A stretch of 64,000 nt of DNA, from the NCBI GenBank assembly GCA_002070055.1, contig MWCM01000005.1, positions 2,015-66,014 on the forward strand, read 5' to 3'. The translations under genes were made by a program, and so were the position numbers. Of the stretch, positions 4,155 through 26,987 are shown one piece after another. The first letter of the stretch is position 1. Every line of letters starts with the position of its first letter. Below the pieces are notes generated by a model that did no database searches, was not told the origin of the DNA, and saw only the letters and a list, made by a program, of their open reading frames with translations. Source of the DNA: a bacterium ADurb.Bin212. Lineage in GTDB: Bacteria > Patescibacteriota > UBA1384 > XYA2-FULL-43-10.

Positions 4155-4411
4155 TTTCCCCTCCCTGCAAACTTATAAAATATCTCTAATCGTAAAAATT
4201 GGGTCAAGTTTGCCAGCACAGCTATTTATCTTGATGCTTCTCTCTTTTCAAACGATCCAGATCAAACACGCCCTTGCCGCTTACCATCATCTCCTCTTTT
4301 CTTTTCTCTTCGTCCTCTTTAAGGAGTTTTTCCTCTATTTGGTCCAGATCCTCTTCTGTAAAAGCATCTGAGTAGTATGACATAGTATAATTATATCAAA
4401 GTTTTTTAAGC

Positions 4412-5113
4412 TTAATCAAAACTCTGGCTCAAGCGTCGTTTTGCCCGAATTATAGAATCCGCTCGCAGCTTAACTCGCAGATCACAAGGCAAAAAATCTA
4501 AGGTAAAATCCCTGCCTTCCAGAATAATTTTTTGATTGCACTGATTAGCAACTTTCTCTATCTCCTTAGCCATAAACTCTATAACTAGGGCTTGATTGTT
4601 AGCAGCGACTTCAGGGACCAGGCATGAGAAGTCCGGGTTATTAATATGCTTTGACAAGTGATGGGCAACATCTACGTCTTGATAGTGCAAATCTAAAGAG
4701 TTTTCAGTTAGAACATACGCGCTCTGCTCTAAGTTGTTTTGATGATTTTTCTCCCCCCTAACCATCTCCAAATAGCATAATAATCTGAAAACCTCTCCAA
4801 AGGAAAATGAAAGGGCGGATAATTCCTCTCTCAAAGCCTTAGCAGTTGAGCTTTTGCCCACGCCGCTCAAACCATCAATAGCAATAATTTTTTCATTGTC
4901 TCTTAGCGCTTTTACAATCTCATCAACCACATTAGATATTCCCACCACCGAACCGGTATCAATATTAATCACCCGCTTTGGCGGTATTTGAACCAAGCCT
5001 TTGGCAATCAAATCTTGCTTGTTAGTATTACTAATTTTACTATCCGCCTCGTCCCTCTCAAGAAGCTGTCTATGTGCTTCTGATAAAGAAGTGTTATTAA
5101 ACTGATCATCCAT
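4412..5113 (-). CDS. cmk: cytidylate kinase (CMP/dCMP kinase) with N-terminal extension
   Basis: P-loop IAIDGLSGVGKSS, and a C-terminal EGRDFTLDFLPCDLRVKLRADSIIRAKRR that matches the Cmk GRDiGTvV...K.FL.A....RA.RR region. An extended -10 TGTTATAAT and an AAGGTGG RBS lie upstream on the minus strand. Confidence 0.65.
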   Translation of the reverse strand: MDDQFNNTSLSEAHRQLLERDEADSKISNTNKQDLIAKGLVQIPPKRVINIDTGSVVGISNVVDEIVKALRDNEKIIAIDGLSGVGKSSTAKALREELSALSFSFGEVFRLLCYLEMVRGEKNHQNNLEQSAYVLTENSLDLHYQDVDVAHHLSKHINNPDFSCLVPEVAANNQALVIEFMAKEIEKVANQCNQKIILEGRDFTLDFLPCDLRVKLRADSIIRAKRRLSQSFD

Positions 5114-5187: not shown

Positions 5188-5340
5188 TCATATCTTTAAT
5201 ATAAATCATTAGTTTAATTTTTTTCTAAGCCGAATGTAGAGGGACTCGGTCACACGTATCCGCATGCTGGCGGATCGCTCGACCCCGCCTCGGCGACAGC
5301 CTCGCCTGCGGCTTTCTCGCCCTCTCGGCTATCATACCCA
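5188..5340 (-). ncRNA. candidate small structured RNA of unknown class (GC-rich, terminator-bounded)
   Basis: A ~110-nt GC-rich segment in AT-rich surroundings. It lies between the tRNA-Leu hairpin and a downstream intrinsic terminator on the minus strand. Internal stems AGCCGAGAGGG/CCCUCUACAUUCGGCU, GGCGA/UCGCC and GGCGG/CCGCC. The overlapping 76-aa ORF is implausible. Confidence 0.3.
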
Positions 5341-5379
5341 CCAAACCAAAAAACCAAAAAAATTGGTTTTTTGGTTTGG
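5341..5379 (-). terminator. A/T-only perfect palindrome (15-bp stem, 9-nt loop) abutting the tRNA-Leu 3' end
   Basis: ccaaaccaaaaaacc / ggttttttggtttgg pair perfectly. The encoded CCA of the tRNA is part of the stem. Confidence 0.4.
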
Positions 5380-5461
5380 TGGGCGTAGAGGGACTCGAAC
5401 CCCCATGTCTTGCGACACTAGTTCCTAAGACTAGCGTGTCTACCAATTCCACCATACGCCC
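5377..5461 (-). tRNA. tRNA-Leu (anticodon UAG), type II with long variable arm
   Basis: Manual cloverleaf: acceptor GGGCGTA/TACGCCC, D-stem GTG/CAC with loop GAATTGGTAGA, anticodon stem CTAGT/ACTAG with loop CTTAGGA. Variable arm TGTCGCAAGACAT, T-arm GGGGG-TTCGAGT-CCCTC, discriminator A, encoded CCA. Strongly resembles canonical bacterial tRNA-Leu. Confidence 0.85.
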
Positions 5462-6518: not shown

Positions 6519-7055
6519 TTATATTGTAATCAAATCCTTAATTTTTTCAAAAGTTTTGGATCCAATTCCCTTAATATTTTGGACTTCCGAGATATCTTTA
6601 AAACCTCCGTTATTATTGCGATATTCGATAATCCGGGAAGCGTAAGCGGGACCTATGCCAGGAAGAGTGTCGAGCTGAGAAGCACTAGCGGTATTCAAAT
6701 TAATCTTAGCACTTAGAGGAGAGCTGTTAGCTGTTGTTTTTGTTGCCACACCCGCTACATCTCCGCTGTCTGTAGTAGGCGCGGAAACCTCATTTGTCGT
6801 TGCAATTGTAGCAATGCCGTTGATCTTATTTTCCAGTTCGGCGATTTTTACATTCTGCTCATCAATCTTTTTTGATAATTGCTCTGCTCCTCCATTATTC
6901 ATTATTCTTAATTCATTATTCTCACTCGTTCTCCAATACAAATATCCCCCGCTCAACATAATGCATAAAAGAAGCACGGAGCCGATATACCACCTATAAC
7001 GAAAAATAAATTCATCTGTTTTACTATCTTTTTTCCCGGATTGTTCTGATATCAT
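6519..7055 (-). CDS. comEA: ComEA-like helix-hairpin-helix DNA-binding protein
   Basis: N-terminal TM helix. C-terminal LNTASASQLDTLPGIGPAYASRIIEYRNNNGGFKDISEVQNIKGIGSKTFEKIK is a tandem HhH ComEA signature. Confidence 0.8.
   Translation of the reverse strand: MISEQSGKKDSKTDEFIFRYRWYIGSVLLLCIMLSGGYLYWRTSENNELRIMNNGGAEQLSKKIDEQNVKIAELENKINGIATIATTNEVSAPTTDSGDVAGVATKTTANSSPLSAKINLNTASASQLDTLPGIGPAYASRIIEYRNNNGGFKDISEVQNIKGIGSKTFEKIKDLITI
6892..6921. repeat. AT-rich mini-repeat family 1 copy (CCATTATTCATTATTCTTAATTCATTATTCT), in frame inside comEA
   Basis: 31/31-nt identity with 15607-15637 (iscS). Encodes ELRIMNNGG on the minus strand. Confidence 0.7.
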
Positions 7056-7376: not shown

Positions 7377-9665
7377 TTACTCAAAATGTTTTGAGCTGTT
7401 AAAGACCTCTAATTCATTTTTGATTAGAGGATAAGTATTTTTCCAATTTTCTTCTTTGACAATCATTTCGGAGGTTTTTGTGGCGGCTTGTATCAAATGC
7501 TGATTACTTAAATCTGCAAATTTAAGATTTAAATAACCGCTTTGCTCTAAACCAAATATATCACCGCCACCGCGATTATTTAAGTCCTGCTCTGCTAAAC
7601 GGAAGCCATCGTCAATCTGCTCTAGCGCTTTTAGCCGAGACATAACTTTCTCCGAGTCCGAAGAAGTAAAGAGAAAGCAAAATGATTGGTGTTCGCCTCT
7701 ACCCACTCTGCCTCTAAATTGATGAAGCTGAGCTAAACCAAACCTCTCCGCATCTTCAATCATCATTATGCTGGCGTTCGGCACATCCACACCTACCTCG
7801 ACCACCGATGTGCTAACTAGAATATCAAGTTCAGCAAAAGAGAATTCAGACATGATTTTCTCTTTCTCTTTTGCTTTCATTTTGCCATGCAACATACCAA
7901 TTCTCAAATCTGAAAACACGTTGTTGCTTAGATTCTCGAATTCACCAACCACCGTCTTGCGGTCAATTTCTAACAGATCCATTCCATAATTTTGATTTTT
8001 GATATTTGATTTTTGATCTTCAGAATTCTCATCAATAAGTGGAACAACCACAAAAACCTGCCTGCCCGCTTTAACATGGGCTCTGATAAAATCGTAGGCT
8101 TTTGGGCGGTTTATCTCATCAACCACTCTGGTCTTTATTGGCTTGCGATTTTTAGGCTTCTCTCTTATCACACTTACATCCAGCTCCCCAAACACAATCA
8201 ATTGTAAAGATCGGGGTATGGGAGTAGCAGTCATGGAAAGAAAATGAGGAACCAGACCAGGATTTAGCTTGTTAGCTTGTAGCTTTTTAGGATCAAAGTT
8301 AGCTTCTAACAGTACTCCAGTTCCTTTGTTTTGATCCCTCGAAGCTACTCGGGACAAGTTTTTGATTTTTACACTTTTATTTTCTCTCAGTGCCTGGCGC
8401 TGATTCACTCCAAATCTGTGTTGTTCGTCAACAACAACTAAAGCCAAATTCGGAATCTTTTCCAGAAAGAGTAAAGCATGGGTGCCTATGAGAATCTTTG
8501 GCTTATCAAGGTTTATGCCAGCTCTCAGTTTTTTGTTTGACGATACTATCAGCTCCGCCTCAACATCTTTTGGTAACAAAGATTTAAAAGTCATAAAGTG
8601 TTGTGATGCTAAAATTTCTGTTGGGGCCATTATGGCGGAACTTTTCCCTTCGTTATATGCAGAATAAGCGGCCATCACAGCCAAAACTGTTTTTCCGCTA
8701 CCCACGTCACCGTTTAGCAAACGATTCATCGGAGTATCTGTTGCCAAATCGCCCGCAATATCTTGCCAGGCGCTTTGTTGGTCGGCGGTCAGTGCAAAAG
8801 GCAAATTCTCCATCAACCGCCGCACTGCTTCTGTGCCGGTATTAATTTTTGGGGCTTGATCTTTTTTAAGCTCCTGCTTTATTACCTTACCGCGCAAAGA
8901 TATAAGGAACAATTCATTAAAAGCCATTCTGCTTTTGGCTTCTTCTAGTTCTTGCATATTCTTTGGCTCGTGCAAAATCCTTATTGCCTTATCCAGCGGC
9001 AACAATTCATTTTGTTCAAGAATACCCTCTGGCAAATAATCTTTAATGTCTTCAATTTTATTTATTAGACTTTTTATTAGCTTTGCTATGTAATGAGTAG
9101 TTACCCCATTTGTTTCTCTGTAGACAGCAACAATCTTAGGCCTGTCTGCCCAATCCGGTGATTCCATAACATAATCTTGCCCGAAGGGGTCAAATTTTAC
9201 CTTGCCGTTTAGAATGATTTCTCTACCTAAACCAAGCATTTTAGAGAGGTAGGGTTGATTAAACCAGACTACTTTTATAATGCCCGTTTCATCTTCGACT
9301 ATCGCCTCGGTAACAGTAAAACCCCGCCTGCGCGTTTTTTTATTGGCAATGCCTACAATCCTAGCTTTAATTGTTAAATTGCTAGAATTGTTAAATTGCT
9401 CTCCTGTTATTCCAGAAGAAACCCCAGCACCCTCTTTTGTCACTTTGATGCTTGATGTTTCATTGGTTATTGAATATTGATTATTGGATCTTGCGATATC
9501 CGAAATTTTGCTGATATCGCTATAGTTCAAATACTTCCGCGGAAAATAGTAGATTAAATCACCAATCGTCTCTACGCCCATTTTAGCCAATTTCTTGGCT
9601 GTTTTCGGCCCCACCCCGGGCAAATACTGCACCGGAGTATCAAATTTTTCTTTCTGTGTGTCCAC
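7377..9665 (-). CDS. recG: ATP-dependent DNA helicase RecG (with low-complexity insertions)
   Basis: HhH LPGVGPKTAKKL at the N-terminus, Walker A DVGSGKT, DEQHRFGV (DExH), and FRGRVGRG motif VI. Insertions encoding NIKNQNYG and similar. Confidence 0.9.
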   Translation of the reverse strand: MDTQKEKFDTPVQYLPGVGPKTAKKLAKMGVETIGDLIYYFPRKYLNYSDISKISDIARSNNQYSITNETSSIKVTKEGAGVSSGITGEQFNNSSNLTIKARIVGIANKKTRRRGFTVTEAIVEDETGIIKVVWFNQPYLSKMLGLGREIILNGKVKFDPFGQDYVMESPDWADRPKIVAVYRETNGVTTHYIAKLIKSLINKIEDIKDYLPEGILEQNELLPLDKAIRILHEPKNMQELEEAKSRMAFNELFLISLRGKVIKQELKKDQAPKINTGTEAVRRLMENLPFALTADQQSAWQDIAGDLATDTPMNRLLNGDVGSGKTVLAVMAAYSAYNEGKSSAIMAPTEILASQHFMTFKSLLPKDVEAELIVSSNKKLRAGINLDKPKILIGTHALLFLEKIPNLALVVVDEQHRFGVNQRQALRENKSVKIKNLSRVASRDQNKGTGVLLEANFDPKKLQANKLNPGLVPHFLSMTATPIPRSLQLIVFGELDVSVIREKPKNRKPIKTRVVDEINRPKAYDFIRAHVKAGRQVFVVVPLIDENSEDQKSNIKNQNYGMDLLEIDRKTVVGEFENLSNNVFSDLRIGMLHGKMKAKEKEKIMSEFSFAELDILVSTSVVEVGVDVPNASIMMIEDAERFGLAQLHQFRGRVGRGEHQSFCFLFTSSDSEKVMSRLKALEQIDDGFRLAEQDLNNRGGGDIFGLEQSGYLNLKFADLSNQHLIQAATKTSEMIVKEENWKNTYPLIKNELEVFNSSKHFE
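7990..8018. repeat. TTTTGAT/ATTTGAT heptamer tract in frame inside recG
   Basis: TTTTGATTTTTGATATTTGATTTTTGATC. Encodes QKSNIKNQNYG on the minus strand. Confidence 0.6.
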
Positions 9666-9672
9666 AATTATG

Positions 9673-9703
9673 CTTAATCCTTAATTCTGTATTCTTAATT
9701 CTC
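9673..9703. repeat. TTCTTAATTC-type repeat immediately upstream of the recG start
   Basis: CTTAATCCTTAATTCTGTATTCTTAATTCTC. Confidence 0.5.
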
Positions 9704-9783
9704 TATTCCATTTCGCTTTTTGCATAATACATTTTGCATTTTGCATTAAGCATTGTATTAATTATACCCTCAAGCTCCGTAAA

Positions 9784-9974: not shown

Positions 9975-11288
9975 ATGATCGAAACACTGCACATCGCGGC
10001 CGCCTTGGCGGCCATCCTGTCGTTTCACGTCGCATTCAGGTGGGAGAAGGCGGGCGGGCTGATTGTTGTGTACATGGCCTGCCTCTTCTTCCTAACCGGA
10101 GTCCCCGACCCCTTGCGGGCGGGGACGTTGGGCATGGCCATCGGGTTGGGCACTGTGCCCTTCCAGATGTGGTTTATGCTCAGATTCCTGGGAGGGAAGG
10201 CGCTTGGCCTGTGGCTCTACATGAGCTCACTGCCGGCGATCTTTCTCCTGCTGTCCTCGTACCTTAGGGGCAGCCACGAACTTATGGTGCTCGCTGTCCC
10301 CTTCGTTTGGAGCATCATCGAAGTGGGAAGGAGCGAGTGTGGCAGGTTGCGCTACAGCTGGCTCATACCGGCTCATGCGCTTTCCGCTAGGCCGTGGATC
10401 AAGCTCCTCGGAGCAGGTGTCTACGGTTTCAGCTTCCTCGTCATGGCAGCCCTTGCGCTCTGCGCGGTGCTGCCGGCCTACCTCTGGCCGGTCGTCGTTG
10501 GGGCAGCCCTTGGCGCCTTGATCGTTCGGCAGAGCCCCTTCTGGACGCATAAGCACCTTCAGGTGGCCGGCTTCCAGATTGAGGCAGGCGTGGACGGCGG
10601 CACGGGCCTGCGTTTTGCAGGATACGACGAAATCCTGCGCCAACTCCACCGCTGCCTCCACCGCCACCCCAACGCCGAACTGGTAGTGGCACCCGAGTAC
10701 GCGCTACCAGACCAACCCGAGGCAATGCTTCTGGCATGGTGCCGAAAGTTCGGCAAGTGGCTGCTTATCGGCGGCCGGGAACACCTTGACGACGATGGCG
10801 GGTTCAGAAACACCGCCTATCTCGTCTCCCCCCTCGGAGAGGTATTCCGGCAGGGCAAAATGGTGCCCATACCCACGGCACCGGACGGTCTGCCCGCCAC
10901 CGAGCAGAAGCCGCTTCGTAACTCCTTGGGCACTCTTGGCATCTGCATCTGCTACGACCTAAGCTTCGCCTCGGTCGTAGCACCGCTCGTTGAGAGTGGT
11001 GTGCAGGCGCTGGTGGTGCCATCAATGGACCTTGCGGAGTGGGGTCCGCACGAGCACCGGCTTCACGAGAAGTGGGCGAGGATTATGTCCTACGTCTACT
11101 CCTTGTCGGTGTTCCGTGTGGTCTCCTCCGGCCAGTGCCAACTGGTTGATTGCGGAGATGTCCTTGCGGTCAGCCAGGACGGCACCATCGGCGACAACTT
11201 GCCCATGCACTTGGGCGAAGTGCCTACCGACTGGAGGATCCTCCGCCACCTCCTTCCTCCGCTCGTGCGCGCGCCGAGTGAGGAGTAA
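9975..11288 (+). CDS. lnt: apolipoprotein N-acyltransferase (Lnt)-like: polytopic N-terminal domain plus C-terminal CN-hydrolase domain; high-GC
   Basis: About 6 TM helices, then a nitrilase-superfamily domain. Candidate catalytic residues are Glu in LVVAPEYALP, Lys in FRQGKMVPIP and Cys in LGICICYDLSF. Visibly GC-rich relative to the flanks. Confidence 0.7.
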   Translation: MIETLHIAAALAAILSFHVAFRWEKAGGLIVVYMACLFFLTGVPDPLRAGTLGMAIGLGTVPFQMWFMLRFLGGKALGLWLYMSSLPAIFLLLSSYLRGSHELMVLAVPFVWSIIEVGRSECGRLRYSWLIPAHALSARPWIKLLGAGVYGFSFLVMAALALCAVLPAYLWPVVVGAALGALIVRQSPFWTHKHLQVAGFQIEAGVDGGTGLRFAGYDEILRQLHRCLHRHPNAELVVAPEYALPDQPEAMLLAWCRKFGKWLLIGGREHLDDDGGFRNTAYLVSPLGEVFRQGKMVPIPTAPDGLPATEQKPLRNSLGTLGICICYDLSFASVVAPLVESGVQALVVPSMDLAEWGPHEHRLHEKWARIMSYVYSLSVFRVVSSGQCQLVDCGDVLAVSQDGTIGDNLPMHLGEVPTDWRILRHLLPPLVRAPSEE

Positions 11289-11312
11289 CAACTTCTGCGC
11301 ACAGAACACGGA

Positions 11313-11352
11313 AGCCCCGCTCTACCTCGTAGAGTGGGGCTTCTTGCTTTTC
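11313..11352 (+). terminator. intrinsic terminator after the Lnt-like gene
   Basis: GCCCCGCTCTAC-CTC-GTAGAGTGGGGC hairpin followed by TTCTTGCTTTTC. Confidence 0.5.
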
Positions 11353-11392
11353 TATCTTGATTTTTTCGGTGATTGTGTTAATATGCGGTTAC

Positions 11393-11640
11393 TTGCAAGA
11401 GGTTTGAGGGCGGCGCTTCGGCGGCATCTCCAGCGGTAGCCTTGGCATCACAAAGGACATCCGCACGAGCTAAGTTTGCTCGGGAGGCCCAAGTAAACCG
11501 CAGCCATTCCTTTTGCAAGGAGGTCAGCCCGCCTTTCGGGTGAACCGGGGTAGAGAGCGTTGTAGCAATGTTGCTGTTACACCCCGCCAGCACTCATTGC
11601 TGCTCTCTACCCACCTTTTTTAAGTCAAGAGCTAGCGGCT
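11393..11640 (+). ncRNA. candidate structured RNA or leader (GC-rich, promoter-like start, tandem terminators at the 3' end)
   Basis: Promoter-like TTGATT-N16-TAATAT (11359-11386). About 250 nt of GC-rich sequence with long inverted repeats. Ends with a GGGTAGAGAGC...GCTCTCTACCC hairpin plus TTTTTT, and a second hairpin AGAGC-TAGCG-GCTCT plus T8. Class not identified. Confidence 0.3.
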
Positions 11641-11711
11641 CTTTTTTTTGTTTTAAAAATAGATTCCATGTTATGATTTGAATAATAGATCAATTAAATA
11701 GTGAGGTATAA

Positions 11712-12083
11712 ATGCCAGGCGAAACAATCGGACCCGTATTAGAAGCAGAAACAAACAACCCAGAGAAAGAAGAGCAGCCAATAGGTGCTGGACCATATTT
11801 TTTAGCAGGAAAACCAAAAAATGAAAGCTATTTAGGAGATAATACCATAATTACTCTAGCTGTATGGCACGGCACACCGGTTTTAGCTCCCAGCAGCCAA
11901 CTGGATCGTGGCCTAGAGCTAGATGTAACAGTTGCCACAGACGAAAAAGAAGAACTAAGAACCGAAAACGGTGGTTATGATATCGGTGGTATATATAAGC
12001 TGGAAGACGGAGAACTTATCACCAAAAGAGCATACGAAAATAAATACGGCACAACTAATAGAACCGAAGAAATAGCCGCTTAA
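11712..12083 (+). CDS. hypothetical protein (123 aa)
   Basis: ORF with RBS GTGAGGT before the ATG. Followed by a terminator. No motif. Confidence 0.4.
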   Translation: MPGETIGPVLEAETNNPEKEEQPIGAGPYFLAGKPKNESYLGDNTIITLAVWHGTPVLAPSSQLDRGLELDVTVATDEKEELRTENGGYDIGGIYKLEDGELITKRAYENKYGTTNRTEEIAA

Positions 12084-12159: not shown

Positions 12160-13404
12160 TTATTTTTCTATCGTTCCCCCGCCGATCACTTCGTCTCCAA
12201 TAAAAAACACAGCGCTCTGGCCGGGGGTGACGGCTCTCTGTGGTTCATCAAATATTACCTTAATCGTTCCTTGCTTAATTCTTAATCCTGAGTTCTTAAT
12301 CTTGCAACCCACACTTTTCGCCTGTGATCGGATTTTGACTGATAAGTTAGTAGCGGGTAGCGGGTAGTGAGTAGGGACATTGATCCAACTTAAATTAGAT
12401 ACAACCATCTCTTTCTTATAAATCTCGCTATCTTCCCCGACTATTAACCGGTTTTTTGACCGATCAAACCCAGCCACATACAAAGGTTTTTTATCATAAA
12501 GGGATTCCTCGGCTTCTCGCAAAACCTGCGAGTCGCTCGGAATGACAGTATTAACGTTCTTCAGTTCTTTGGTTTCTCGGTTCTTAAGTTGTTGGTTAAT
12601 TCCCCTCCTCTGTCCTATCGTATAATTAATCAACCCTTCATGCCTTCCCACAATATTACCTCCTGTATCAACAATATCTCCTGACTCAATACAGCTGTCT
12701 TTTACCTCATTCTTTAAAAATTCCCGATAATCCGTATTTTGCAAAAAACATATCTCTTGACTCTCTTTTTTTTCGGCAACTGGTAAATCCCATTTTTTCG
12801 CCAGCTCCCTCACCTCTTTTTTGGTTAATTCACCAAGAGGAAAGATTACTTTAGATAGTTGCTCTTGATTAAGCCGGTAAAGCATATAAGACTGGTCTTT
12901 GGAGTTATCGAATCCAGCAAGTAAATGATAAATTGTTGTATTGTTAAATTGTTTTTTATTCGAATAATTAGAATTTGGATATTTATTGGTTATTGCGCCT
13001 TGGTTATTGGTTGTTTCCGAATCTTTGATTCTGGCATAATGTCCTGTTGCCAACTTTGCACATCCAAGTTTCTCTGCCTCACCTATGAGTAGCTTAAATT
13101 TGATCTCCGGATTACAAATCGTGCATGGATTCGGAGTGCGCAAATTTTTGTATTCGGAAACAAAATACTCTACCACTACCCTTTTGAACTCTGCTTCTGC
13201 ATCAATCTCATAGAACGGGATCTTTAGAAACTCTGCCACCTTTCTAGATTCAAGCAGACCATCATCTACGCCATCATGCTTCCACATCTTTAAAAAGAGC
13301 CCGATTACATCGTAGCCCTCATCTTTTAATATTTTTGCTACTGCAGCACTATCTACGCCCCCGCTTAAGGCTACAGCGACTTTTATTTTGGAATTATGAA
13401 TCAT
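12160..13404 (-). CDS. mnmA: tRNA-specific 2-thiouridylase MnmA (with low-complexity insertion)
   Basis: PP-loop VAVALSGGVDSAAVAKIL near the N-terminus, and C-terminal domains typical of MnmA. The longer ORF extension to 13485 runs through mini-repeat sequence, so I prefer the ATG at 13404. Confidence 0.85.
   Translation of the reverse strand: MIHNSKIKVAVALSGGVDSAAVAKILKDEGYDVIGLFLKMWKHDGVDDGLLESRKVAEFLKIPFYEIDAEAEFKRVVVEYFVSEYKNLRTPNPCTICNPEIKFKLLIGEAEKLGCAKLATGHYARIKDSETTNNQGAITNKYPNSNYSNKKQFNNTTIYHLLAGFDNSKDQSYMLYRLNQEQLSKVIFPLGELTKKEVRELAKKWDLPVAEKKESQEICFLQNTDYREFLKNEVKDSCIESGDIVDTGGNIVGRHEGLINYTIGQRRGINQQLKNRETKELKNVNTVIPSDSQVLREAEESLYDKKPLYVAGFDRSKNRLIVGEDSEIYKKEMVVSNLSWINVPTHYPLPATNLSVKIRSQAKSVGCKIKNSGLRIKQGTIKVIFDEPQRAVTPGQSAVFFIGDEVIGGGTIEK
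12274..12305. repeat. TTCTTAATTC-type repeat in frame near the mnmA 3' end
   Basis: CTTAATTCTTAATCCTGAGTTCTTAATCTTGC. Peptide KIKNSGLRIKQG. Confidence 0.5.
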
Positions 13405-13420
13405 GAATAATGAATAATGC
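13391..13420. repeat. family 1-related repeat (GAATTATGAATCATGAATAATGAATAATG) at the mnmA start
   Basis: Same GAATAATGAAT units as the other copies. Overlaps the mnmA start codon region. Confidence 0.5.
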
Positions 13421-13453: not shown

Positions 13454-14266
13454 TTATACTTTTTTCTGCGCGGCAGAAACCACATTCTTCATAAGCATCG
13501 CTACCGTTACCGGACCAATTCCACCTGGCACTGGCGTATAATATGAAGCTTTTTTATAACAAGCCCCATCCACATCACCGGCTAACTTTCCGCCCACTTC
13601 GGTTGTTCCGGCATCAATTAGTACAGCACCCGTCTTGATCATATTTGGTTTAATAATATCGGCCACTCCGGTTGCCGAAATTATAATATCTGCATCAAGG
13701 GTTATTGTGCCCAAATATGGCGTGTCCTTGTAGGCGATTCTAACCTCATTAGCGGTTCTCTCCAACATCCTGGCAATAGGCGAACCAACCAAGAAACCCT
13801 TACCAATAATAGCTACCTTTGAATCTGCCAGATTAACACCGGATCTTTCTATAGCTTGCATTATCGATAAAGTAACAGGAGGGCGGAAATCGCAACTCAG
13901 ATTGCTACAAAACCTAAGTCCATCAACATCTTTTTCTGGAGAGATAATTGAAATAATATCAACAAGATCAAATTTTTTCGGCATCGGAACCTGAACCATT
14001 ACTCCCACGACTTTTTGATTTTCGTTCAACTCCTTGATACGTGTTTCTATCTCTGTTTTTTCGACATTATCAGAATACTTAATTAAGTCAAAATGAATCC
14101 CAACTTTCTCGGCGGCACGTTGCTTGACCTCAATGTAACGAGCGCTGGCGAAATCATCACCGACCCAAATAACAGCCAAGACCGGCTCGACCCCTAATTG
14201 ATCAACCTGAACTTTAAGTTGATCTAAGATTTCATCCCTAATTTTTTTGCCATCAAAGTAATTCAT
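13454..14266 (-). CDS. folD: bifunctional methylenetetrahydrofolate dehydrogenase/cyclohydrolase FolD
   Basis: YIEVKQRAAEKVGI, GKGFLVGSPIARML and PVPGGIGPVTVAMLMKNVV motifs. Start taken at MNYFDGKK. Confidence 0.9.
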   Translation of the reverse strand: MNYFDGKKIRDEILDQLKVQVDQLGVEPVLAVIWVGDDFASARYIEVKQRAAEKVGIHFDLIKYSDNVEKTEIETRIKELNENQKVVGVMVQVPMPKKFDLVDIISIISPEKDVDGLRFCSNLSCDFRPPVTLSIMQAIERSGVNLADSKVAIIGKGFLVGSPIARMLERTANEVRIAYKDTPYLGTITLDADIIISATGVADIIKPNMIKTGAVLIDAGTTEVGGKLAGDVDGACYKKASYYTPVPGGIGPVTVAMLMKNVVSAAQKKV

Positions 14267-14346
14267 GATTCGTAATTCAAACACAAATCTGTAACACAAA
14301 TCTTCACAAATGGGGAATAAATAATGATTGGTGATAATTTGCCTAA

Positions 14347-14760
14347 TTATTTGAGTTGTAATCTCCTCTTATAATCCTCAATTGCTTTCTTTATAGCATC
14401 TGCAGACAATATTGAACAGTGATATTTTTGCGCTGGTAATTTTCCCAGACTGTCATTAATGTCGTCACGGGTAATCTTTTCAGCTGATTCTAAACTCTTT
14501 CCCTTAGCCAACTCCGTCATCATACTACTTGCTGCAATAGCCGCAGCACAGCCAAGAGTTTTAAACTTAATATCAGAGATGTAATCTTCCACTTTTTCCT
14601 TTCCACTTTTTCCTTTTACCTTGCGAGTTTTTATTTTAATAAAAACTCGCATCACGTCTCCGCACTTAAGATTGCCAACTTCACCGACACCATCAGCGTC
14701 TTTTATCTCCCCGACATTCCGCGGGTTTTCAAAATGATCTAAAACTTCTTTTGTATACAT
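14347..14760 (-). CDS. iscU: Fe-S cluster assembly scaffold IscU/NifU-like (with Lys-rich insertion)
   Basis: LKCGDVMRVFIKI and FKTLGCAAAIAASSMMTE, the conserved Cys ligands of U-type scaffolds. Confidence 0.85.
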   Translation of the reverse strand: MYTKEVLDHFENPRNVGEIKDADGVGEVGNLKCGDVMRVFIKIKTRKVKGKSGKEKVEDYISDIKFKTLGCAAAIAASSMMTELAKGKSLESAEKITRDDINDSLGKLPAQKYHCSILSADAIKKAIEDYKRRLQLK

Positions 14761-14828
14761 CTTTTTATTCTAAGTTATTGATTATTGATAATTTGGATAT
14801 TCATCGGTTATTGTTTCTTGAATATTGA

Positions 14829-16163
14829 TTATTTGCCATATGGGCTCATTTGCCTTAATTTTTTTATGATGCCGGGAAGTATTTCTATTACACGATCGAT
14901 TTCCTCCTCCGTATTATGTTTCCCTAAACTAAAACGAATCGAGCCGTGGGACCACTCTGGTGATACGCCTATAGCTGTTAAAACATGGCTTGGTTCCAGC
15001 GATCCCGATGTACAAGCGCTCCCACTAGATGCCGCTATGCCCTCTTTATCAAGCATTAATAGAATTGATTCCCCTTCGGCATTCTTAAAACTTACATTAA
15101 CATTATTTGGGGATCTTCTTTTGAGGCAACCGTTGACTCTGGTATCAGGAATCTTCATTAAACCTTTAATTAATTTATCTCTGAGTTGCTTTAATCGTTT
15201 AGTTTCATCGTATAAAATCAATTCCGGCAAAAGTTTTCCAGATTCCTCGATTTTGCTATCAGCTTTGGCTTTATGCATCTTAACCAGTGCAGCACTCAAA
15301 CCGGCGATGCCGGCCACATTCTCTGTTCCGGCACGCATTTTATTCTCTTGGTTGCCACCGACTATCTGCCTGATTATTGGCGTGCCATTTTTAACGAACA
15401 GCGCGCCCACGCCTTTTGGTCCGTAAAATTTGTGAGCAGAGAAAGTAAGCAAATCAACACCCAAATATCTGACACCGGTTTGGAAATATTCCATTGCTTG
15501 CACCGCATCGGTGTGGAAATAAATTTGCTTTGCAAATTTATTTCCCGAATTATGAATAAAGAATGAAGAATTATGTTTATTCGGCTCAGTAACATTAGAC
15601 TTTTTCCCATTATTCATTATTCTTAATTCATTATTCTTCGCTATCATCTGTGCGATTTGCTTAATTGGTTGCACTGTGCCTATCTCGTTATTAACATACA
15701 TAATGCTCACCAAAACCGTGTTGTCTTTAATCTCCGCGTCTATATCCTCAACTCGTATCACACCGTTTTTCTGCGGAGTTACATAGCTAGCCTCTATCAG
15801 GCCCTGTTTCTCTAACTCCTTCACAGTATCCAAAACAGAGTGGTGTTCTACGGCACTTGTTATAACATGAGGCGTCGCTCTATTATTTTTCTGATCTGTG
15901 TTACTATGATATGCGTCAATCAAACCTTTTATAGCTAAGTTATTGCTTTCGGAGCCACCAGAGGTGAAAATAACCTCTTCGGGCTGGCAATTGAGACTAA
16001 AGGCTACAGTGTCCCTTGCTTCGTTTAAGATATTTCTAGCTCCCAAACCAAAGCTATGTGCAGATGATGCATTGCCCCAAAATTCCTTCTGAACCTTGTT
16101 CATAAGCAGAGCTACCTCCGGATCAGGAGGAGTTGTCGCCGAATGATCTAAATATATCTTCAT
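14829..16163 (-). CDS. iscS: cysteine desulfurase (group I IscS/NifS type) carrying an in-frame mini-repeat insertion
   Basis: IYLDHSATTP, PLP-lysine motif SAHKFYGPKGVGALFV, and active-site loop SSGSACTSGSLEPSHVL. Start taken at MKIYLDH (16163). Confidence 0.9.
   Translation of the reverse strand: MKIYLDHSATTPPDPEVALLMNKVQKEFWGNASSAHSFGLGARNILNEARDTVAFSLNCQPEEVIFTSGGSESNNLAIKGLIDAYHSNTDQKNNRATPHVITSAVEHHSVLDTVKELEKQGLIEASYVTPQKNGVIRVEDIDAEIKDNTVLVSIMYVNNEIGTVQPIKQIAQMIAKNNELRIMNNGKKSNVTEPNKHNSSFFIHNSGNKFAKQIYFHTDAVQAMEYFQTGVRYLGVDLLTFSAHKFYGPKGVGALFVKNGTPIIRQIVGGNQENKMRAGTENVAGIAGLSAALVKMHKAKADSKIEESGKLLPELILYDETKRLKQLRDKLIKGLMKIPDTRVNGCLKRRSPNNVNVSFKNAEGESILLMLDKEGIAASSGSACTSGSLEPSHVLTAIGVSPEWSHGSIRFSLGKHNTEEEIDRVIEILPGIIKKLRQMSPYGK
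15547..15575. repeat. inverted, diverged partner of family 1 repeat (GAATTATGAATAAAGAATGAAGAATTATG) inside the cysteine desulfurase gene
   Basis: Imperfect reverse-complement of the 15606-15637 copy, about 30 nt away. Together they form a ~90-nt MITE-like unit encoding SSFFIHNSGNK...NNELRIMNNG. Confidence 0.5.
15606..15637. repeat. AT-rich mini-repeat family 1 copy, in frame inside the cysteine desulfurase gene
   Basis: Identical core to 6892-6921. Encodes NNELRIMNNGKK. A partner in inverted orientation lies at 15547-15575. Confidence 0.7.
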
Positions 16164-16177
16164 TTGTCTTCTATCCT

Positions 16178-16387
16178 TTAGTCCTTGAGTCTTTTTGTAA
16201 TCTTCCTCAAATCTTCCACGCACTTTTTGCAATTCTCTCCACTAACTAACTTGTCGTAGCAATCTTTAGGAACTAAGTAGGCCACCGGAGTCGAGTATCG
16301 CATAACTTCATATACCTCGCCTTCTTCGGTTTCACGAATCACCTTTGATAGCTCGTTTTGTAATTTATTGGTTGTTATTCTTTTCAT
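16178..16387 (-). CDS. small protein with Phd/YefM-type antitoxin-like N-terminus (orphan)
   Basis: KRITTNKLQNELSKVIRETEEGEVYEVMRYSTPVAYLVPKDCYDKL follows the Phd/YefM pattern (..LS..i...e.GE...v.R...PVA.LVP..Y..L). No toxin partner is seen. Confidence 0.35.
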   Translation of the reverse strand: MKRITTNKLQNELSKVIRETEEGEVYEVMRYSTPVAYLVPKDCYDKLVSGENCKKCVEDLRKITKRLKD

Positions 16388-16453
16388 AATTATCGTTAAA
16401 TATATGTTACATGTAATGTAACATTTGTAATTAGCTCTGTCAACTTTGTCGAT

Positions 16454-17257
16454 CTATTCCATGCCAAAAAATTGCAACGATTTTTTACTGGTGCTTTGTT
16501 CAACGGTCGCTACGGGTATTTGTTTAATTTCCGCAATCTTTTTTGCCACTTCAATCACATAAGCAGGTTCGTTTCTTTCACCACGGTAAGCCTCGGGGGC
16601 AAGATATGGGCAATCCGTTTCAATCATTATTGAACCAAGTGGTGTCTTTTTAATCACCTCTTCAATATCTTTGGATTTTGAGTAAGTTATATTACCAGTA
16701 AAAGAGATTAAAAAATTTAAGTCCAAGATCTTTTTTGCAAAATCATAATCGCCGCTAAAACAATGTACAACACCACGCAAAGCACCAGAGTAACTTTTTA
16801 ATATGGCATAAATATCCGCCTCTGCCTCCCTAGAATGGACAATAACCGGTAACCTTAATTCAAGAGCTAAGTCCAACATCTGCTCAAAACAGAAGATCTG
16901 ATCTTCACGCTTTGGATAATTGGCAAATTTTGAAGATCTTTTTAAATAGTAGTAATTAAGGCCTATCTCACCGACGGCGATAACCTTGCGATTTTTTGCC
17001 AAATCGGTGAGATACGGTCTAGTCTCCATATCCAAATCTAACGAAGAGTGGGGATGTAGACCCACAGCGGCATAGATCTCGGGGTAATGTCTGGCAATCT
17101 CCACAGATCTCTTTGATGTGCCTAAGTCTACTCCGACATTGATGATTTTTTCGACACCAAAACTCTTGGCTCGTGCAATAGCCGAGCCTATTTCTCCTTT
17201 AAACTCAGGAAAATCCAAATGTGCGTGGGTATCAATGAACATAATCTTCAGTTTCAA
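16454..17257 (-). CDS. tatD: TatD-family metal-dependent DNase/hydrolase
   Basis: MFIDTHAHLDF, VGLHPH, IGEIGLNYYY, PVIVHSREA and IETDCPYLAP motifs. An alternative start sits at 17242. Confidence 0.9.
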   Translation of the reverse strand: MKLKIMFIDTHAHLDFPEFKGEIGSAIARAKSFGVEKIINVGVDLGTSKRSVEIARHYPEIYAAVGLHPHSSLDLDMETRPYLTDLAKNRKVIAVGEIGLNYYYLKRSSKFANYPKREDQIFCFEQMLDLALELRLPVIVHSREAEADIYAILKSYSGALRGVVHCFSGDYDFAKKILDLNFLISFTGNITYSKSKDIEEVIKKTPLGSIMIETDCPYLAPEAYRGERNEPAYVIEVAKKIAEIKQIPVATVEQSTSKKSLQFFGME

Positions 17258-21644: not shown

Positions 21645-23015
21645 TTAGAACAACATCGCCCAAATACTGGCAATGCCGGCAATTGACATAAGAGCCACTG
21701 TGATCCAACCCATTATTTTGCCCAGCCAACCGCTTCTTCTTTCGCCCATAACTCTTTTACTGGAAGCTAAAATTACAATACAAACCAAAATCACCGGCGC
21801 AGCTAAACCGTTTGCCACCGCTGAATATATCAAAGCTTTTATCGGGTCTATGCCGGTAAAATTTATGCCTATGCCGATAAGCATCGAAATTATTATTATT
21901 CCATAAAAAGCATAGGCTTGCTTTAGTTTTAGATGTAAACCTTGCCTCCAACCAAAACTTTCCGCTATGGCATAAGAGCTGGAACCGGCTAAGACCGGTA
22001 TACCAAGAAGGCCCGTGCCGATAATGCCAAGCGCGAATAAAAAGTAAGAATAATCTCCGGCAAACGGCCTTAAGGCCTCCGCAGCTTGAGCCGCTGTATC
22101 TATATTTGTAATGCCATTTGCATTTAAAGCTGCTGCACAAGTTACGATAATAAAGAACATTACCAAGTTCGACAAAAACATGCCGCTCCAAACATCTGTC
22201 CGCATGTTCTTTACCTCTTCGTTATTCACATCATTTTGACGCAATTTTATATTGGTTAGACCTTTTTCTATGCGCTCCTCAACTTCCTGAGATGTCTGCC
22301 AAAAGAATAAATAGGGAGAAATAGTTGTGCCCAAGATGGCACAAATCAGAATGATGCTATCGCGGCTTAAACTCATATTTGGAGTAACTGCGCTTTTTAG
22401 TATCTCGCGCCAGTTTATTCCATCAATCAGTAGCGCAGAGAGCACGTAAGCAAGTAAAATCATCGCCAACCACTTAAGAACATTAGCATATTTTTTATAG
22501 GCACTGTAAATCTGCAAGAAAAGTATAATCAGGGCAAACAAAACCACCGCAAGCAGATAGTTTACCCCCCAAAACAATCTGATCGCCTCCGCCATAGCAC
22601 CCAAATTGGCCCCGATATTTAAAGTGTTGGCAACAAATAGAAGCACCGTGCAAAAAATTAGCACCTTACGGGAAAAATGTATTCGAATGTTTCCGGCCAG
22701 CCCCCTGCCGGTGACCATGCCTATCCTGGCACACATTTCTTGAACCACGGACATTAAAGGATAGGTGAATGCCGCTAACCACAAAAAAGCGTAACCGTAT
22801 TGCGCACCGGTTTGTGAATAGGTAGCAATTCCACTTGGATCATCGTCGCTAGCTCCGGTAGTTAAGCCCGGACCCAAAGAGTGCCAATAGCTACGCAAAG
22901 TAGCAATGGACTTTCCTGCCACCTTCTGCTCCAAACTCTTCGAAACCTCGACTGTTTTTTCGAGACCCTTTGCAGGAGACTCAACAATCTTTTCGAAGAC
23001 ATTCTTCTGATTCAT
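21645..23015 (-). CDS. mntH: NRAMP-family divalent metal (Mn2+/Fe2+) transporter
   Basis: DDDPSGIATYSQTGAQYGYAFLWLAAFTYPLMSVVQEMCARIGMVTGRGLA aligns with the NRAMP DPGN..TD..GAQFGY...LSARLG.VTG signature. Multi-pass membrane protein. Confidence 0.8.
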   Translation of the reverse strand: MNQKNVFEKIVESPAKGLEKTVEVSKSLEQKVAGKSIATLRSYWHSLGPGLTTGASDDDPSGIATYSQTGAQYGYAFLWLAAFTYPLMSVVQEMCARIGMVTGRGLAGNIRIHFSRKVLIFCTVLLFVANTLNIGANLGAMAEAIRLFWGVNYLLAVVLFALIILFLQIYSAYKKYANVLKWLAMILLAYVLSALLIDGINWREILKSAVTPNMSLSRDSIILICAILGTTISPYLFFWQTSQEVEERIEKGLTNIKLRQNDVNNEEVKNMRTDVWSGMFLSNLVMFFIIVTCAAALNANGITNIDTAAQAAEALRPFAGDYSYFLFALGIIGTGLLGIPVLAGSSSYAIAESFGWRQGLHLKLKQAYAFYGIIIISMLIGIGINFTGIDPIKALIYSAVANGLAAPVILVCIVILASSKRVMGERRSGWLGKIMGWITVALMSIAGIASIWAMLF

Positions 23016-23032
23016 TTGTGCCCCTCCGCCAC

Positions 23033-23069
23033 GAATATAGAATAACGAATAATGAATTATGAATAATGG
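23033..23069. repeat. family 1-related repeat (GAATATAGAATAACGAATAATGAATTATGAATAATGG), intergenic between the NRAMP gene and rsmA
   Basis: Shares the GAATAATGAATTATGAATAATGG core. Confidence 0.55.
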
Positions 23070-23082: not shown

Positions 23083-24042
23083 TTAATACTGGCTATTCTC
23101 TATTTCTCTTGCTAACATAACCCATTGCTCGATTGTAAGCTCCTGAGCCCTAGCGTTTCTACCTATATTCATCTTATCTAATAGTTCTATGGTCTGTCCA
23201 CTACTTAAATTGGTGCCAGCCTTTAAGTTATTAAATAAGGTCTTTCTCCTCGCCCTAAACCCAGCTTTCACTATTTTAAAAAAGTTTTTTTCATCAATTT
23301 TTGATTTTTGATATTTAATATTTGATATCTTTATGATCGCACTATCAACTGTTGGCACAGGAAAAAAAGAATCGCGTTTTACGATATCAACAATCTCCGG
23401 ATCACCATAATATTGCACCGAAACACCTAGCAGCGATAAATCGCCGTTCTTAGCACATACCCGCTCCGCCACCTCTTTTTGCACCAAAAGAACGATAAGC
23501 ACTGGCTTATTGTCGGCAGTTAGAAATTTCTCAAGAATTTTCGAGGTAATATAGTAAGGAATGTTGGCTACTAGCTTGTAGGGAACAGGTTCTAGGTTTA
23601 AGGTTTCAGATTCTAGTGATTCCTGCATCAAATCTGTCCCTTTTCCTTTGTCATCCCGAGCGACTCGCAGATTTTGTGAGGAGTCGAGGGATCCCTTTAT
23701 TATTGATTCAGGATCAAATTCTAAGGCATCTTCGCAAATTATTTCCGCGTCTATACTTAATTCTGAATTCTTAATTCTTAATTCTAGTAAATTTGCCAGC
23801 TTCTCATCCTTCTCAATCGCCACTACCCTTCCGGCTTTTATAACCAGCTCCTCTGTTAACGCCCCAACCCCTGGGCCGATCTCCAATACCAGATCTGACA
23901 GCTTAAGATCAGCAGCTGTTACAATTTTATCGAGCACCCCTCGGTCAACTAAAAAATTCTGGCCCAAGCTTTTTTTAGCCCAGAGCCCATTTTGTTTTAA
24001 ATAACTTATTAGTTCGTTCTTATTGGTTAAATCCATAGTCAT
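23083..24042 (-). CDS. rsmA: 16S rRNA (adenine1518/1519-N6)-dimethyltransferase RsmA/KsgA (with ~60-aa insertion)
   Basis: LGQNFLVDRGVLDKIV, SAM motif VLEIGPGVGALTEEL, and LVANIPYYITS. Start taken at MTMDL (24042). The longer ORF runs into GC-rich non-coding sequence. Confidence 0.9.
   Translation of the reverse strand: MTMDLTNKNELISYLKQNGLWAKKSLGQNFLVDRGVLDKIVTAADLKLSDLVLEIGPGVGALTEELVIKAGRVVAIEKDEKLANLLELRIKNSELSIDAEIICEDALEFDPESIIKGSLDSSQNLRVARDDKGKGTDLMQESLESETLNLEPVPYKLVANIPYYITSKILEKFLTADNKPVLIVLLVQKEVAERVCAKNGDLSLLGVSVQYYGDPEIVDIVKRDSFFPVPTVDSAIIKISNIKYQKSKIDEKNFFKIVKAGFRARRKTLFNNLKAGTNLSSGQTIELLDKMNIGRNARAQELTIEQWVMLAREIENSQY
23295..23329. repeat. TTTTGAT-type tract in frame inside rsmA
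   Basis: CAATTTTTGATTTTTGATATTTAATATTTGATATC. Encodes ISNIKYQKSKID. Confidence 0.55.
23756..23787. repeat. TTCTTAATTC-type repeat (CTTAATTCTGAATTCTTAATTCTTAATTCTAG) in frame inside rsmA
   Basis: Encodes LELRIKNSELSI on the minus strand. Related copies at 12274-12305 (mnmA, KIKNSGLRIKQG) and 9673-9703 (upstream of recG). Confidence 0.55.
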
Positions 24043-24045
24043 TTT

Positions 24046-24330
24046 GGTGTGGCCGACTACCCGCCTCGGGGGCGGGTGTCGGCCGGTGTGCGGTCTCTCC
24101 TCGGTGACACACAAACCTCAAGGCTGTATTCAGGGTCGGTGTACTCCGTTGATGCAGCGTCGGGGTTGATACCATGAGATCTTAGCTCATGTTTACCGGA
24201 ACACTCCAAGCACTGAACATTCTGTAGCTTCCAACAACCACATCTTGGACGTGGCATATGGGCCCTCCCGTGACATGTTGCTATAGACCACAGGAATTAC
24301 ATACAAAATAATCAATATAAGCAATAACCC
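24046..24330 (-). other. GC-rich structured intergenic segment (candidate ncRNA or leader) between the G5/DPBB gene and rsmA
   Basis: About 280 nt of GC-rich sequence in an AT-rich genome. Hairpins GGCCGAC-ACCCGCCCCCGAGGCGGGTA-GTCGGCC and CATGAG-ATCTTAG-CTCATG. The overlapping 66-aa ORF is implausible. Confidence 0.3.
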
Positions 24331-25978: not shown

Positions 25979-26987
25979 AGACATATTTAAAAAATCCTCT
26001 TCACGAAGAAAAATCGATAGATCTGAAGGAGAAGAAAAAACTCCGGATATTATTTTGAGCACAAACAAGGCCATTGAGATTTTGTCGACACAAAAGCAAC
26101 ATCTAAATTCCAAGCAAGTTGAATTAAGTCTAGACAAAAAGCGTCTTAATAGAAAATTAGACCGCCAGATATTAAGAATCCACAGAACAAAAGAGCAAGT
26201 TGAAAAAAGGATAGAGTTTGTTCGAAACGGCGGCGCCAGGATTTCAATTCCATTCTTAAAGAATTCTGATCTATTTCTGCGCAGAAGACTTCTCTGGTAT
26301 AGGAATTGGCACAACAATTCAATCTCACCCAAACTTCACTTAACCGCCCTTGGGTCTTATCTAATAATCTCTGTCTTTTTAGCTATCATATTTATGCAGG
26401 GTGTGCCCAATAACACCTCCGCCCTTAATTCTGAACACCGTAAAACCTCTTTAGTATCTGCCATCTACACACCAGATAATCTGTCGCTTAAAAATAGCAA
26501 AGTGCAACTGCCTCAAGACGAGAAGCCGATATCTACTTTATATGAAGACAATTTAGCCGTTGACTTTTCCGATAAATCAAGCAAATTGGCCAGTGCTAAA
26601 ATTCGAACCATGGACAAGAACAAGCAAGAGCAATGGGTTGAATTTGTCTTGTTGCAACCGAAGGATTTACAACAACCCAGCTCTGAAAATATCAGCTCGA
26701 ACTCTTTAGTAAGCGCTTCAGCACATGCCGAACCGGACAATAGCCTGGTTGAGGCAAATATCGTTGATGTCACCAAAGAGATCAATAACAGTATAGTAAC
26801 CCTGAATGTTAATAATGCTGTTGCCGCAAAATATGAGGTCTCAAGCAACAATAGTCAAGCCACAGTTAAAGAGACTTTAATTATAGAAGACATTAGCGCA
26901 TTTAGTAAAAATCCCGACTATACGATCTCTTTTAGAGTAAAAACTCAAGGTCTAGCAATAATTCAAAAAGAAAACGGTGCCTATTAG
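25968..26987 (+). CDS. hypothetical coiled-coil/single-TM protein, translationally coupled on both sides
   Basis: Overlaps the TPR gene by 11 nt and the giant gene by 11 nt. Charged coiled-coil N-terminus and TM helix LHLTALGSYLIISVFLAIIFMQGV. Confidence 0.4.
   Translation: MALKDIFKKSSSRRKIDRSEGEEKTPDIILSTNKAIEILSTQKQHLNSKQVELSLDKKRLNRKLDRQILRIHRTKEQVEKRIEFVRNGGARISIPFLKNSDLFLRRRLLWYRNWHNNSISPKLHLTALGSYLIISVFLAIIFMQGVPNNTSALNSEHRKTSLVSAIYTPDNLSLKNSKVQLPQDEKPISTLYEDNLAVDFSDKSSKLASAKIRTMDKNKQEQWVEFVLLQPKDLQQPSSENISSNSLVSASAHAEPDNSLVEANIVDVTKEINNSIVTLNVNNAVAAKYEVSSNNSQATVKETLIIEDISAFSKNPDYTISFRVKTQGLAIIQKENGAY

Follow-up and report, generated by a model that had tools for sequence, protein, structure and literature searches.

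The nifS gene of the bacterium ADurb.Bin212, which encodes a cysteine desulfurase and lies in the 64,000-nucleotide (nt) stretch of contig MWCM01000005.1 analyzed here (the window), contains an in-frame unit of about 90 nt in which two arrays of heptamers face each other as an inverted pair. The unit folds into strong hairpins and occupies a permissive position in the protein; its repeats are dispersed in this and other genomes, its sequence is conserved at the level of nucleotides, and its presence among orthologs is patchy and has changed repeatedly. What kind of element is it? The available data tentatively favor a dispersed hairpin repeat of the kind represented by REPINs (repetitive extragenic palindromic doublets forming hairpins) and RPEs (Rickettsia palindromic elements), gained repeatedly in a permissive, hairpin-prone loop; this is the leading candidate, held with reservations.

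The nifS product is a class-V aminotransferase (Pfam Aminotran_5, 2.3e-68) that matches cysteine desulfurases of the PDB with E about 1e-92. Its true start is likely M24, at 16163, giving a protein of 444 residues; over these it is 100% identical to P0001 ("Cysteine desulfurase", bacterium ADurb.Bin212). Annotations of NifS relatives name Candidatus Berkelbacteria or Patescibacteria, which belong to the candidate phyla radiation (CPR), and the host, to judge from its sequence, is a CPR bacterium related to Berkelbacteria.

Repeat finding confirmed the layout given in a preliminary description of this DNA: the repeats quoted there are in place, as two inverted arms around a 32-nt spacer in a unit of ~90 nt. 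The arms (15547-15575 and 15608-15636; 29 nt each) are complementary at 24 of 29 positions (83%) and together make up hairpin 1 (HP1). The 64-kb window has no other inverted repeat as good as HP1 (24/29 or better, with a spacer of at most 60), and 20 dinucleotide shuffles contain none. Each arm consists of four tandem GAATWAW heptamers: Tandem Repeats Finder reports 4.1 copies in the arm at 15608-15636, and four GAATNNN units were read from the sequence of the arm at 15547-15575. What was earlier labeled as terminal inverted repeats thus consists of tandem heptamer arrays. Abutting HP1 is a second hairpin, HP2 (15515-15545), absent from the preliminary description, with a perfect stem of 14 base pairs (bp) and a 3-nt loop. 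The features of this region are:

14829..16232, minus strand: open reading frame (ORF) of the NifS/IscS-type cysteine desulfurase (nifS), from the ORF list, Pfam and the PDB match
15608..15636, minus strand: HP1 5' arm (sense), GAATAAT GAATTAA GAATAAT GAATAAT G, read NNELRIMNN
15576..15607, minus strand: HP1 spacer/loop, 32 nt, encoding GKKSNVTEPNK
15547..15575, minus strand: HP1 3' arm (sense), reverse-complement array CATAATTC TTCATTC TTTATTC ATAATTC, read HNSSFFIHNS
15532..15545, minus strand: HP2 5' arm (sense), GGAAATAAATTTGC, read GNKFA; belongs to the insert
15515..15528, minus strand: HP2 3' arm (sense), GCAAATTTATTTCC, the conserved enzyme codons (K)QIYF(H)
about 15531..15620, minus strand: DNA extra relative to insert-free orthologs, I205-A234, net gain 29 residues

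The fold proposed as a check of the unit bears it out: the sense strand from 15510 to 15645 forms HP1 and HP2 side by side, at -35.3 kcal/mol, with z = -5.7 as RNA and -5.9 as DNA. Along nifS-nifU only two spots fall below z = -3.5, the nifS insert and one palindrome in nifU. The HP1 loop (15576-15607) differs in sequence between lineages and is not conserved; most of the substitutions that separate the window from its relative L001 are concentrated in this spacer. In the region of the HP2 3' arm, F239 and H240 are invariant in the homolog alignment.

How does the protein accommodate such an insert? As first described, the unit lies within the desulfurase ORF between conserved enzyme blocks (by Pfam and comparison with the PDB), keeps the reading frame intact and adds about 30 residues: the segment from NNEIGT to FHTD, which has a modal length of 27 residues in 116 homologs, measures 56 in the window nifS, a net insert of 29. 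Solved cysteine desulfurases have one residue opposite query residues 202-235 (34 residues), and in the homologs examined the same loop varies in length from -8 to +66 residues. The outer heptamer pair of the HP1 sense 5' arm (15621-15636) overlaps the ancestral codons K199-R204 (K-x-N-K-x-R). In the AlphaFold model, the mean predicted local distance difference test (pLDDT) score of which is 84, the start of the insert prolongs helix 190-211, and residues 213-230 form a loop with a pLDDT of 38-46. The insert is therefore translated in frame and lies in a permissive surface loop; in the best explanation it is a harmless extra loop that NifS tolerates.

The repeat is not confined to nifS. With at most one mismatch, GAATTATGAAT occurs 18 times in the window against 2.95 expected; period 7 is represented by 7 strong runs (periods 5, 6, 8 and 9 by 0-1), and the period-7 arrays comprise many unit types. 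Arrays of the GAATWAW type occupy eight loci, in coding sequence, over start codons and between genes. Single arms and arrays outside nifS are:

6893..6921, minus strand: single arm in the linker before the HHH domain of a ComEA-like gene, 29/29 identical to 15608-15636 and in the same frame (ENNELRIMNNG)
23756..23785, minus strand: single arm (CTTAATT-type) in the RsmA/KsgA gene, read LELRIKNSELS
23031..23068, plus strand: single intergenic array immediately upstream of the ribosome-binding site of the Nramp-family gene 21645-23015
14261..14278, minus strand: single array over the probable folD start codon, ..ELRIMNYFDGKK
13391..13419, plus strand: single array over the probable mnmA start codon, MIHNSKIKVAVALSGG on the minus strand
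12274..12300, minus strand: degenerate array in the variable C-terminal loop of MnmA, KIKNSGLRIK
9669..9708: GAATWAW-type array, intergenic

Pfam places HHH_3 at residues 116-177 of the ComEA-like protein. The RsmA array corresponds to a gain of only about 3 residues compared with solved RsmA; a further insertion of ~30 residues, relative to solved structures, lies between two conserved blocks at residues about 143-180 of the same protein (23083-24114). A composite intergenic block at 9669-9754, in which a CTTAATT-type array is followed by a CATTTTG-type one and which has short inverted ends (ATGCTTAAT ... ATTAAGCAT), adjoins the start of recG (7377-9665, minus strand). At the folD and mnmA junctions, the 81%-identical relative L001 carries different arrays, of the GGATTTA type and the ACAATCGA type (L001 about 4390-4460 and 5300-5440). 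The number of units in the nifS arms is equal in the window and L001, and the intergenic arrays of the two differ completely; a change of one or two heptamer units would shift the nifS frame.

Two-armed copies exist in other genomes. L005 has a second one at its nifU/folD junction (6766-6833), which aligns with the L005 nifS insert over about 87 nt, and its recG contains an in-frame single arm (10554-10578) with heptamer variants in the same order as in the L005 nifS copy; L003 carries a copy, two-armed by appearance, at the end of the methionyl-tRNA synthetase gene. Searching a single genome from each species for GAATWAWGAAT separated by 25-55 nt from ATTCWTWATTC yielded at least 120 loci in many phyla, including Bacteroidota, Patescibacteria, Chloroflexota, Acidobacteriota, Firmicutes, Cyanobacteria and others. 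Nearly all of the matches listed are genuine arrays whose flanks contain additional units; of 125, only 4 fall within long ORFs, two of these being CPR genes with an in-frame insert (L033, a glycosyltransferase-like ORF, and L073, a TsaD-like ORF, both judged from sequence only), and the remainder are intergenic, nearest the 3' end of the upstream gene. In other phyla, some of the genomes among these matches contain multi-copy hairpin elements that are 88-96% identical; L071, L054 and L065 are multi-copy matches. GAATWAW hairpins among the matches listed (L007-L126) often have a G+C-rich inner palindrome (L024, L013).

Within nifS, the GAAT-type insert is scattered over the tree, and most orthologs are without it. 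Twelve of 115 homologs are clear carriers, and parsimony on neighbor-joining trees, bootstraps included, requires 9-12 changes of state. Carriers can be closer to insert-free proteins than to one another: P0097 is 81% identical to insert-free P0112 and at most 65% identical to any other carrier, P0099 is 82.6% identical to insert-free P0077, and P0020 is 85-86% identical to insert-free P0064 and P0059. In the insert-free sisters the segment measures exactly the baseline. Other lineages have long inserts of their own at this site; all of these form strong hairpins too, from different repeat families (L145, L157), which makes the loop a general hotspot for hairpin sequences.

What is being conserved where the insert is present? 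The comparison drew on orthologous DNA from thirteen syntenic loci in assemblies and 80 loci in metagenomes; the gene order around nifS (EamA, TatD, Phd, NifS, NifU, FolD, MnmA) is conserved. In six lineages in which the segment has equal length (117 nt), the 25 insert codons are identical at frequencies of 0.76, 0.71 and 0.75 at positions 1, 2 and 3, whereas in 38 codons on each side the third positions of unchanged amino acids are identical at 0.44-0.49, whether both sequences carry the insert or not. Lineages with saturated synonymous sites show 75-88% identity in their inserts, loops included. The insert is conserved to the same degree at its third as at its other codon positions, beside saturated flanks, and the constraint is therefore on the nucleic acid, not on the peptide; alternatively, the insert may be much younger than the genes that carry it. 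The preliminary description had held that an insert conserved as ordinary protein in distant relatives would speak against a transposon-like unit. The insert does occur in distant relatives, yet it is conserved there as a nucleic-acid architecture, and patchily.

Long co-conversion tracts were considered as a vehicle for the insert. Synonymous similarity, over about 100 flanking codons or over 38 on each side, is no higher between two carriers than between a carrier and a non-carrier, and long tracts were therefore rejected. Tracts of a few codons may be involved, because "ER.." upstream and "RIFF" downstream track the insert: both follow its presence, not the phylogeny of the host.

The architecture is shared. 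HP1 followed by HP2 stands at the same nifS codon in ten lineages (the window, L001, L002, L003, L134/L135, L005, L133, L131, L132 and L141), and L130 has HP1 without HP2. In carriers, HP2 is a perfect stem of 11-14 bp, with one unpaired position inside the stem in L141, and its 3' arm consists of the conserved I-[Y/F/L]-F-H codons. Five of its 14 stem positions show two or three types of Watson-Crick pair, and about 117 paired cells include 2 wobbles and 0 mismatches; among the changes compensated are the synonymous TTT TTC to TTC TTT in L131 and, in L132, the replacement of F by L. Across carriers HP1 is paired over about 75-80% of its length, chiefly through GAAT:ATTC cores, and offers one clear case of a core changed on both sides (GTAT:ATAC in L133). 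The metagenome contig Ga0247841_10018789 (L141) has the same two-hairpin layout at the same codon, made of other heptamers (GGGGGTC/TCGGGGG units against ACTCCAA, paired through G-U): an HP1-like hairpin and then a stem pairing with the IYFH codons. L134, L133 and L131 have a third hairpin just ahead of HP1, small and G+C-rich (GCGAG/CTCGC), the codons of which read E-R-x-N-x-R.

The comparison of the window with L001 is uninformative about stem conservation, as the two are unusually similar over all of the 300 nt that surround the insert. Third-position identity between the two is about 0.8 at 15400-15701 and about 0.45 in the remaining nifS (14829-15400), a contrast that suggests either that the gene is a recombinant mosaic or that the assembly is mixed; in L001 a 100-N gap takes the place of the 5' half of nifS.

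The palindrome in nifU (14622-14651, minus strand) is a perfect 13-bp hairpin of which one arm consists of conserved M-R-V-F-I codons and the other is the start of a lineage-specific insert (KTRKVKGKSGKEKVED). As read from its codons, it has the same design as HP2, with one conserved arm and one insert arm. The nifU orthologs of L001, L002 and L005 have perfect stems of their own, of 9-16 bp and differing sequence. A tandem repeat of period 7/14/21 (TTCCACTTTTTCCT, 2.1 copies) at 14587-14632, also in nifU, encodes KGKSGKEKVE, within a loop that varies in length and sequence in every ortholog.

How would such a unit arise and spread? The tentatively favored model starts from a ~30-nt repeat of four tandem GAATWAW heptamers, two inverted copies of which would fold in a single strand, of DNA or mRNA, into the long interrupted hairpin HP1, with the perfect hairpin HP2 abutting the doublet. 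Being in frame in a presumably disordered surface loop of NifS, the doublet would be translated and tolerated. We infer that the unit was propagated by copying and was not born in situ; the copying may depend on the hairpin and take place on single-stranded DNA, either in a REPIN/HUH-like manner or by template-switch/fold-back synthesis, and not by cut-and-paste with target duplication. HP2 would be kept perfect by intra-strand templated correction or by selection on structure. Conserved as nucleic acid and not as peptide, the unit so resembles the in-gene palindromic repeats of Rickettsia more than a classical transposon. A dispersed repeat fits both the patchy distribution and the extra copies elsewhere.

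Several points weigh against this model. Neither a transposase nor a RAYT (REP-associated tyrosine transposase) is present among 14 of about 52 window ORFs scanned with Pfam, and the target-site duplication that the preliminary description proposed to look for is found neither as direct repeats at the insert junctions in the window nor when the filled site of L005 is compared with the empty site of L127. The nifS pair is the sole doublet in the 64-kb window. The insert is 75 nt long at one codon in at least three separate clades, and insertion at the same codon and of the same length is not expected of an untargeted element. The HP2 5' arm covaries with lineage-specific host codons, and selection on structure or templated copying accounts for this covariation more naturally than transposition does. 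A dispersed repeat must be granted both a strong preference for this site and a means of matching HP2 to the codons of its host.

A serious rival, which we regard as possible although rather doubtful, is that the stem-loop pair is a selected cis-acting structure in nifS mRNA (or single-stranded DNA), inherited vertically and lost many times. It could act as a protein-binding platform, as an element of processing or stability, or as a translational pause site. Much of the evidence from orthologs speaks for it: ten lineages keep HP1 and HP2 at one codon, HP2 has compensatory changes at 5 of its 14 positions, L133 has altered an HP1 core on both sides, L141 has rebuilt the architecture from different heptamers, the three codon positions of the insert are equally conserved, and the nifS insert and the nifU palindrome are the only strongly structured spots of the operon. 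Selection on structure fits the covariation and the common length, but it is hard to reconcile with the distribution, because most orthologs do without the insert and about 10 or more changes of state are needed; under pure loss, each deletion would have to restore the 27-residue baseline exactly. The mismatches in HP1 also fail to show the signature of a sense-strand RNA, as G-U pairs are not in excess (6 G-U vs 13 A-C). A search of the whole window against all Rfam families at gathering thresholds returned tRNA only and nothing for the nifS insert, and in a scan of 14700-16500 promoter-like sites did not exceed shuffles and terminator-like sites were absent. Finally, a structure selected in nifS leaves the repeat unit in unrelated genes and in intergenic DNA unexplained.

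Could the insert instead have been made on the spot, by a process that involves no mobility? Slippage of heptamers, together with quasipalindrome or fold-back template switching, might time and again produce hairpins, and make them perfect, in DNA that is under no constraint, with only in-frame products in permissive loops surviving. Quasipalindrome template-switch mutagenesis (the work of Ripley and Lovett) is reportedly a mutational process that acts in E. coli on short imperfect repeats. Perfect stems that pair a constrained coding arm with an exact copy of it in inverted orientation would be accounted for in this way; HP2 and the nifU palindrome have such stems, in which conserved codons pair with the insert as if the flank had been copied. 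Template switching of this kind is not known to generate inserts of 30 residues or families of dispersed copies. The window contains 9 perfect hairpins with a stem of 10 bp or longer, its shuffles 0-2. Slippage, for its part, explains the general abundance and turnover of heptamer arrays: period-7 arrays of many unit types run throughout the window, and L001 has different ones at the same intergenic spots. The passages of two papers that cite Mrazek 2007 state that heptanucleotide repeats are over-represented in prokaryotes and propose polymerase slippage as the cause (PMC4679880, PMC4692102). Yet pure slippage in situ fails, as the preliminary description had argued of simple slippage, because an identical 29-mer stands in another gene (6893-6921), because the order of heptamer variants is common to the recG and nifS copies of L005 and is shared between genomes, and because independent births would not yield inserts 75-88% identical beside saturated synonymous sites, a similarity that exceeds that of the adjacent sites. 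An origin wholly in situ is, on balance, unlikely.

A classical MITE (miniature inverted-repeat transposable element), that is, a non-autonomous cut-and-paste element with terminal inverted repeats mobilized by a transposase in trans, would account for the inverted arms, the size of ~90 nt, the dispersed family and the multi-copy heptamer-armed hairpins of other phyla. The earlier view that the mini-repeats are transposon-like survives to this extent, in that the unit is a two-armed member of a dispersed family of repeats; the label of MITE or transposon is not supported. L005 and L127 reveal no target-site duplication, the arms are tandem arrays and not unique termini, singlets outnumber doublets, the interior is not conserved between lineages and the 14 scanned ORFs include no transposase, all of which makes a MITE very improbable. 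An adaptive peptide loop, in which the 29 extra residues would have a protein-level function such as partner binding and the DNA repeats would be incidental, is scarcely credible: the insert is in frame and stop-free in every carrier and its first part is modeled as an extension of helix 190-211, but a peptide-only explanation fails because of the codon-position test, and the low-confidence loop (pLDDT 38-46), the many orthologs without an insert and the unrelated hairpin-forming sequences that other lineages have at this place also count against it.

Which known systems does the nifS unit resemble? RPEs, known from Rickettsia, are short palindromic repeats of about 150 bp that lie in frame in unrelated housekeeping genes, are translated and are compatible with folding; their families have a conserved consensus and a conserved encoded peptide (PMC10969869). 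Like them, the nifS repeat is in frame in a surface loop absent from solved structures, and it recurs in the ComEA-like, RsmA and MnmA genes and in recG of the relative L005. Unlike them, it has arms of only ~30 nt, against a family consensus of about 100-150 bp, is made of tandem, variable heptamers around a loop that is not conserved, resides in a CPR host and recurs at a single codon in many lineages. REPINs consist of two inverted copies of a short repeat that form a hairpin, coexist with singlets in the same genome and are mobile units tied to RAYT transposases (PMC3116915). The nifS unit is likewise an inverted doublet accompanied by singlets, and L005 and L003 have doublets and singlets too; unlike REPINs, which are extragenic and tied, each family, to a RAYT, the nifS doublet is intragenic and built of heptamers, and no RAYT is found among the 14 window ORFs scanned.

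Heptanucleotide repeats can sit immediately upstream of start codons (PMC4679880) and occasionally occur as inverted pairs (PMC4692102). The window, with its excess of period 7 and its arrays over the folD and mnmA starts, is comparable to genomes with STRR (in the cyanobacterium Calothrix), TAACTGA or GGGAATC heptamer arrays, and the start-codon arrays in particular recall the TAACTGA arrays upstream of start codons in Beggiatoaceae. By contrast with these mainly intergenic direct repeats, nifS has an opposed pair in frame. With MITEs the unit shares its small size, inverted ends and multiple copies; it differs in having no target-site duplication, no conserved interior, ends that are tandem arrays and no cognate insertion sequence among the scanned ORFs. 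The literature found describes neither opposed heptamer arrays nor palindromic inserts in CPR genes, nor an in-frame opposed heptamer pair conserved at the nucleotide level within an enzyme gene.

The case is a variant of in-frame palindromic repeats and of heptanucleotide repeats, both known kinds; what these kinds leave unexplained is the recurrence at one codon, the covariation of the stem with host codons and the conservation at the nucleotide level. These features might instead mark a kind of element hitherto undescribed, a cassette of two to three hairpins with opposed heptamer-array arms and a perfect stem formed with host codons, which would owe its position either to homing-like or hairpin-targeted repeated entry at one codon of a housekeeping gene in different CPR lineages, by copying from or pairing with the target, or to a conserved regulatory structure of nifS-nifU. 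We think this unlikely.

Elsewhere in the window, a perfect 21-bp hairpin with a 5-nt loop (CCCACCAAACCAAAAAACCAA / TTGGTTTTTTGGTTTGGTGGG; 5337-5383) adjoins a tRNA gene (5380-5461, minus strand) at its 3' end and runs slightly into it. Two G+C-rich islands, 10001-12000 (56.5%) and 52001-54000 (60%), stand out in a genome of 38-41% G+C; they overlap an ORF with a weak CN_hydrolase match (9975-11288) and an Amidase_3 ORF (51904-54009), respectively, and may have been acquired horizontally. A single ORF of 3570 residues extends over 26977-37689 on the plus strand.

In-frame palindromic repeats are a textbook oddity of Rickettsia. The nifS insert presents a comparable phenomenon in CPR bacteria, built from heptanucleotide repeats that are widespread and poorly understood, and its signature is unusually clean: conserved third positions in the insert against saturated flanks, a covarying stem and repeated changes of state at one codon. 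There is a practical side to it, since such inserts distort protein alignments, gene calls (through arrays over start codons) and homology-based expectations of length in metagenome-assembled genomes. The system lends itself to asking how short hairpin repeats spread without a recognizable transposase, whether such hairpins function in mRNA and what share of the "lineage-specific loops" of CPR proteins stems from selfish or structural DNA as opposed to selection on the protein. If the insert were indeed a new kind of cassette, it would point to a general way in which hairpin repeats supply the proteins of ultra-small genomes with new loops, with nifU, which carries the same flank-copying palindrome, as a second instance.

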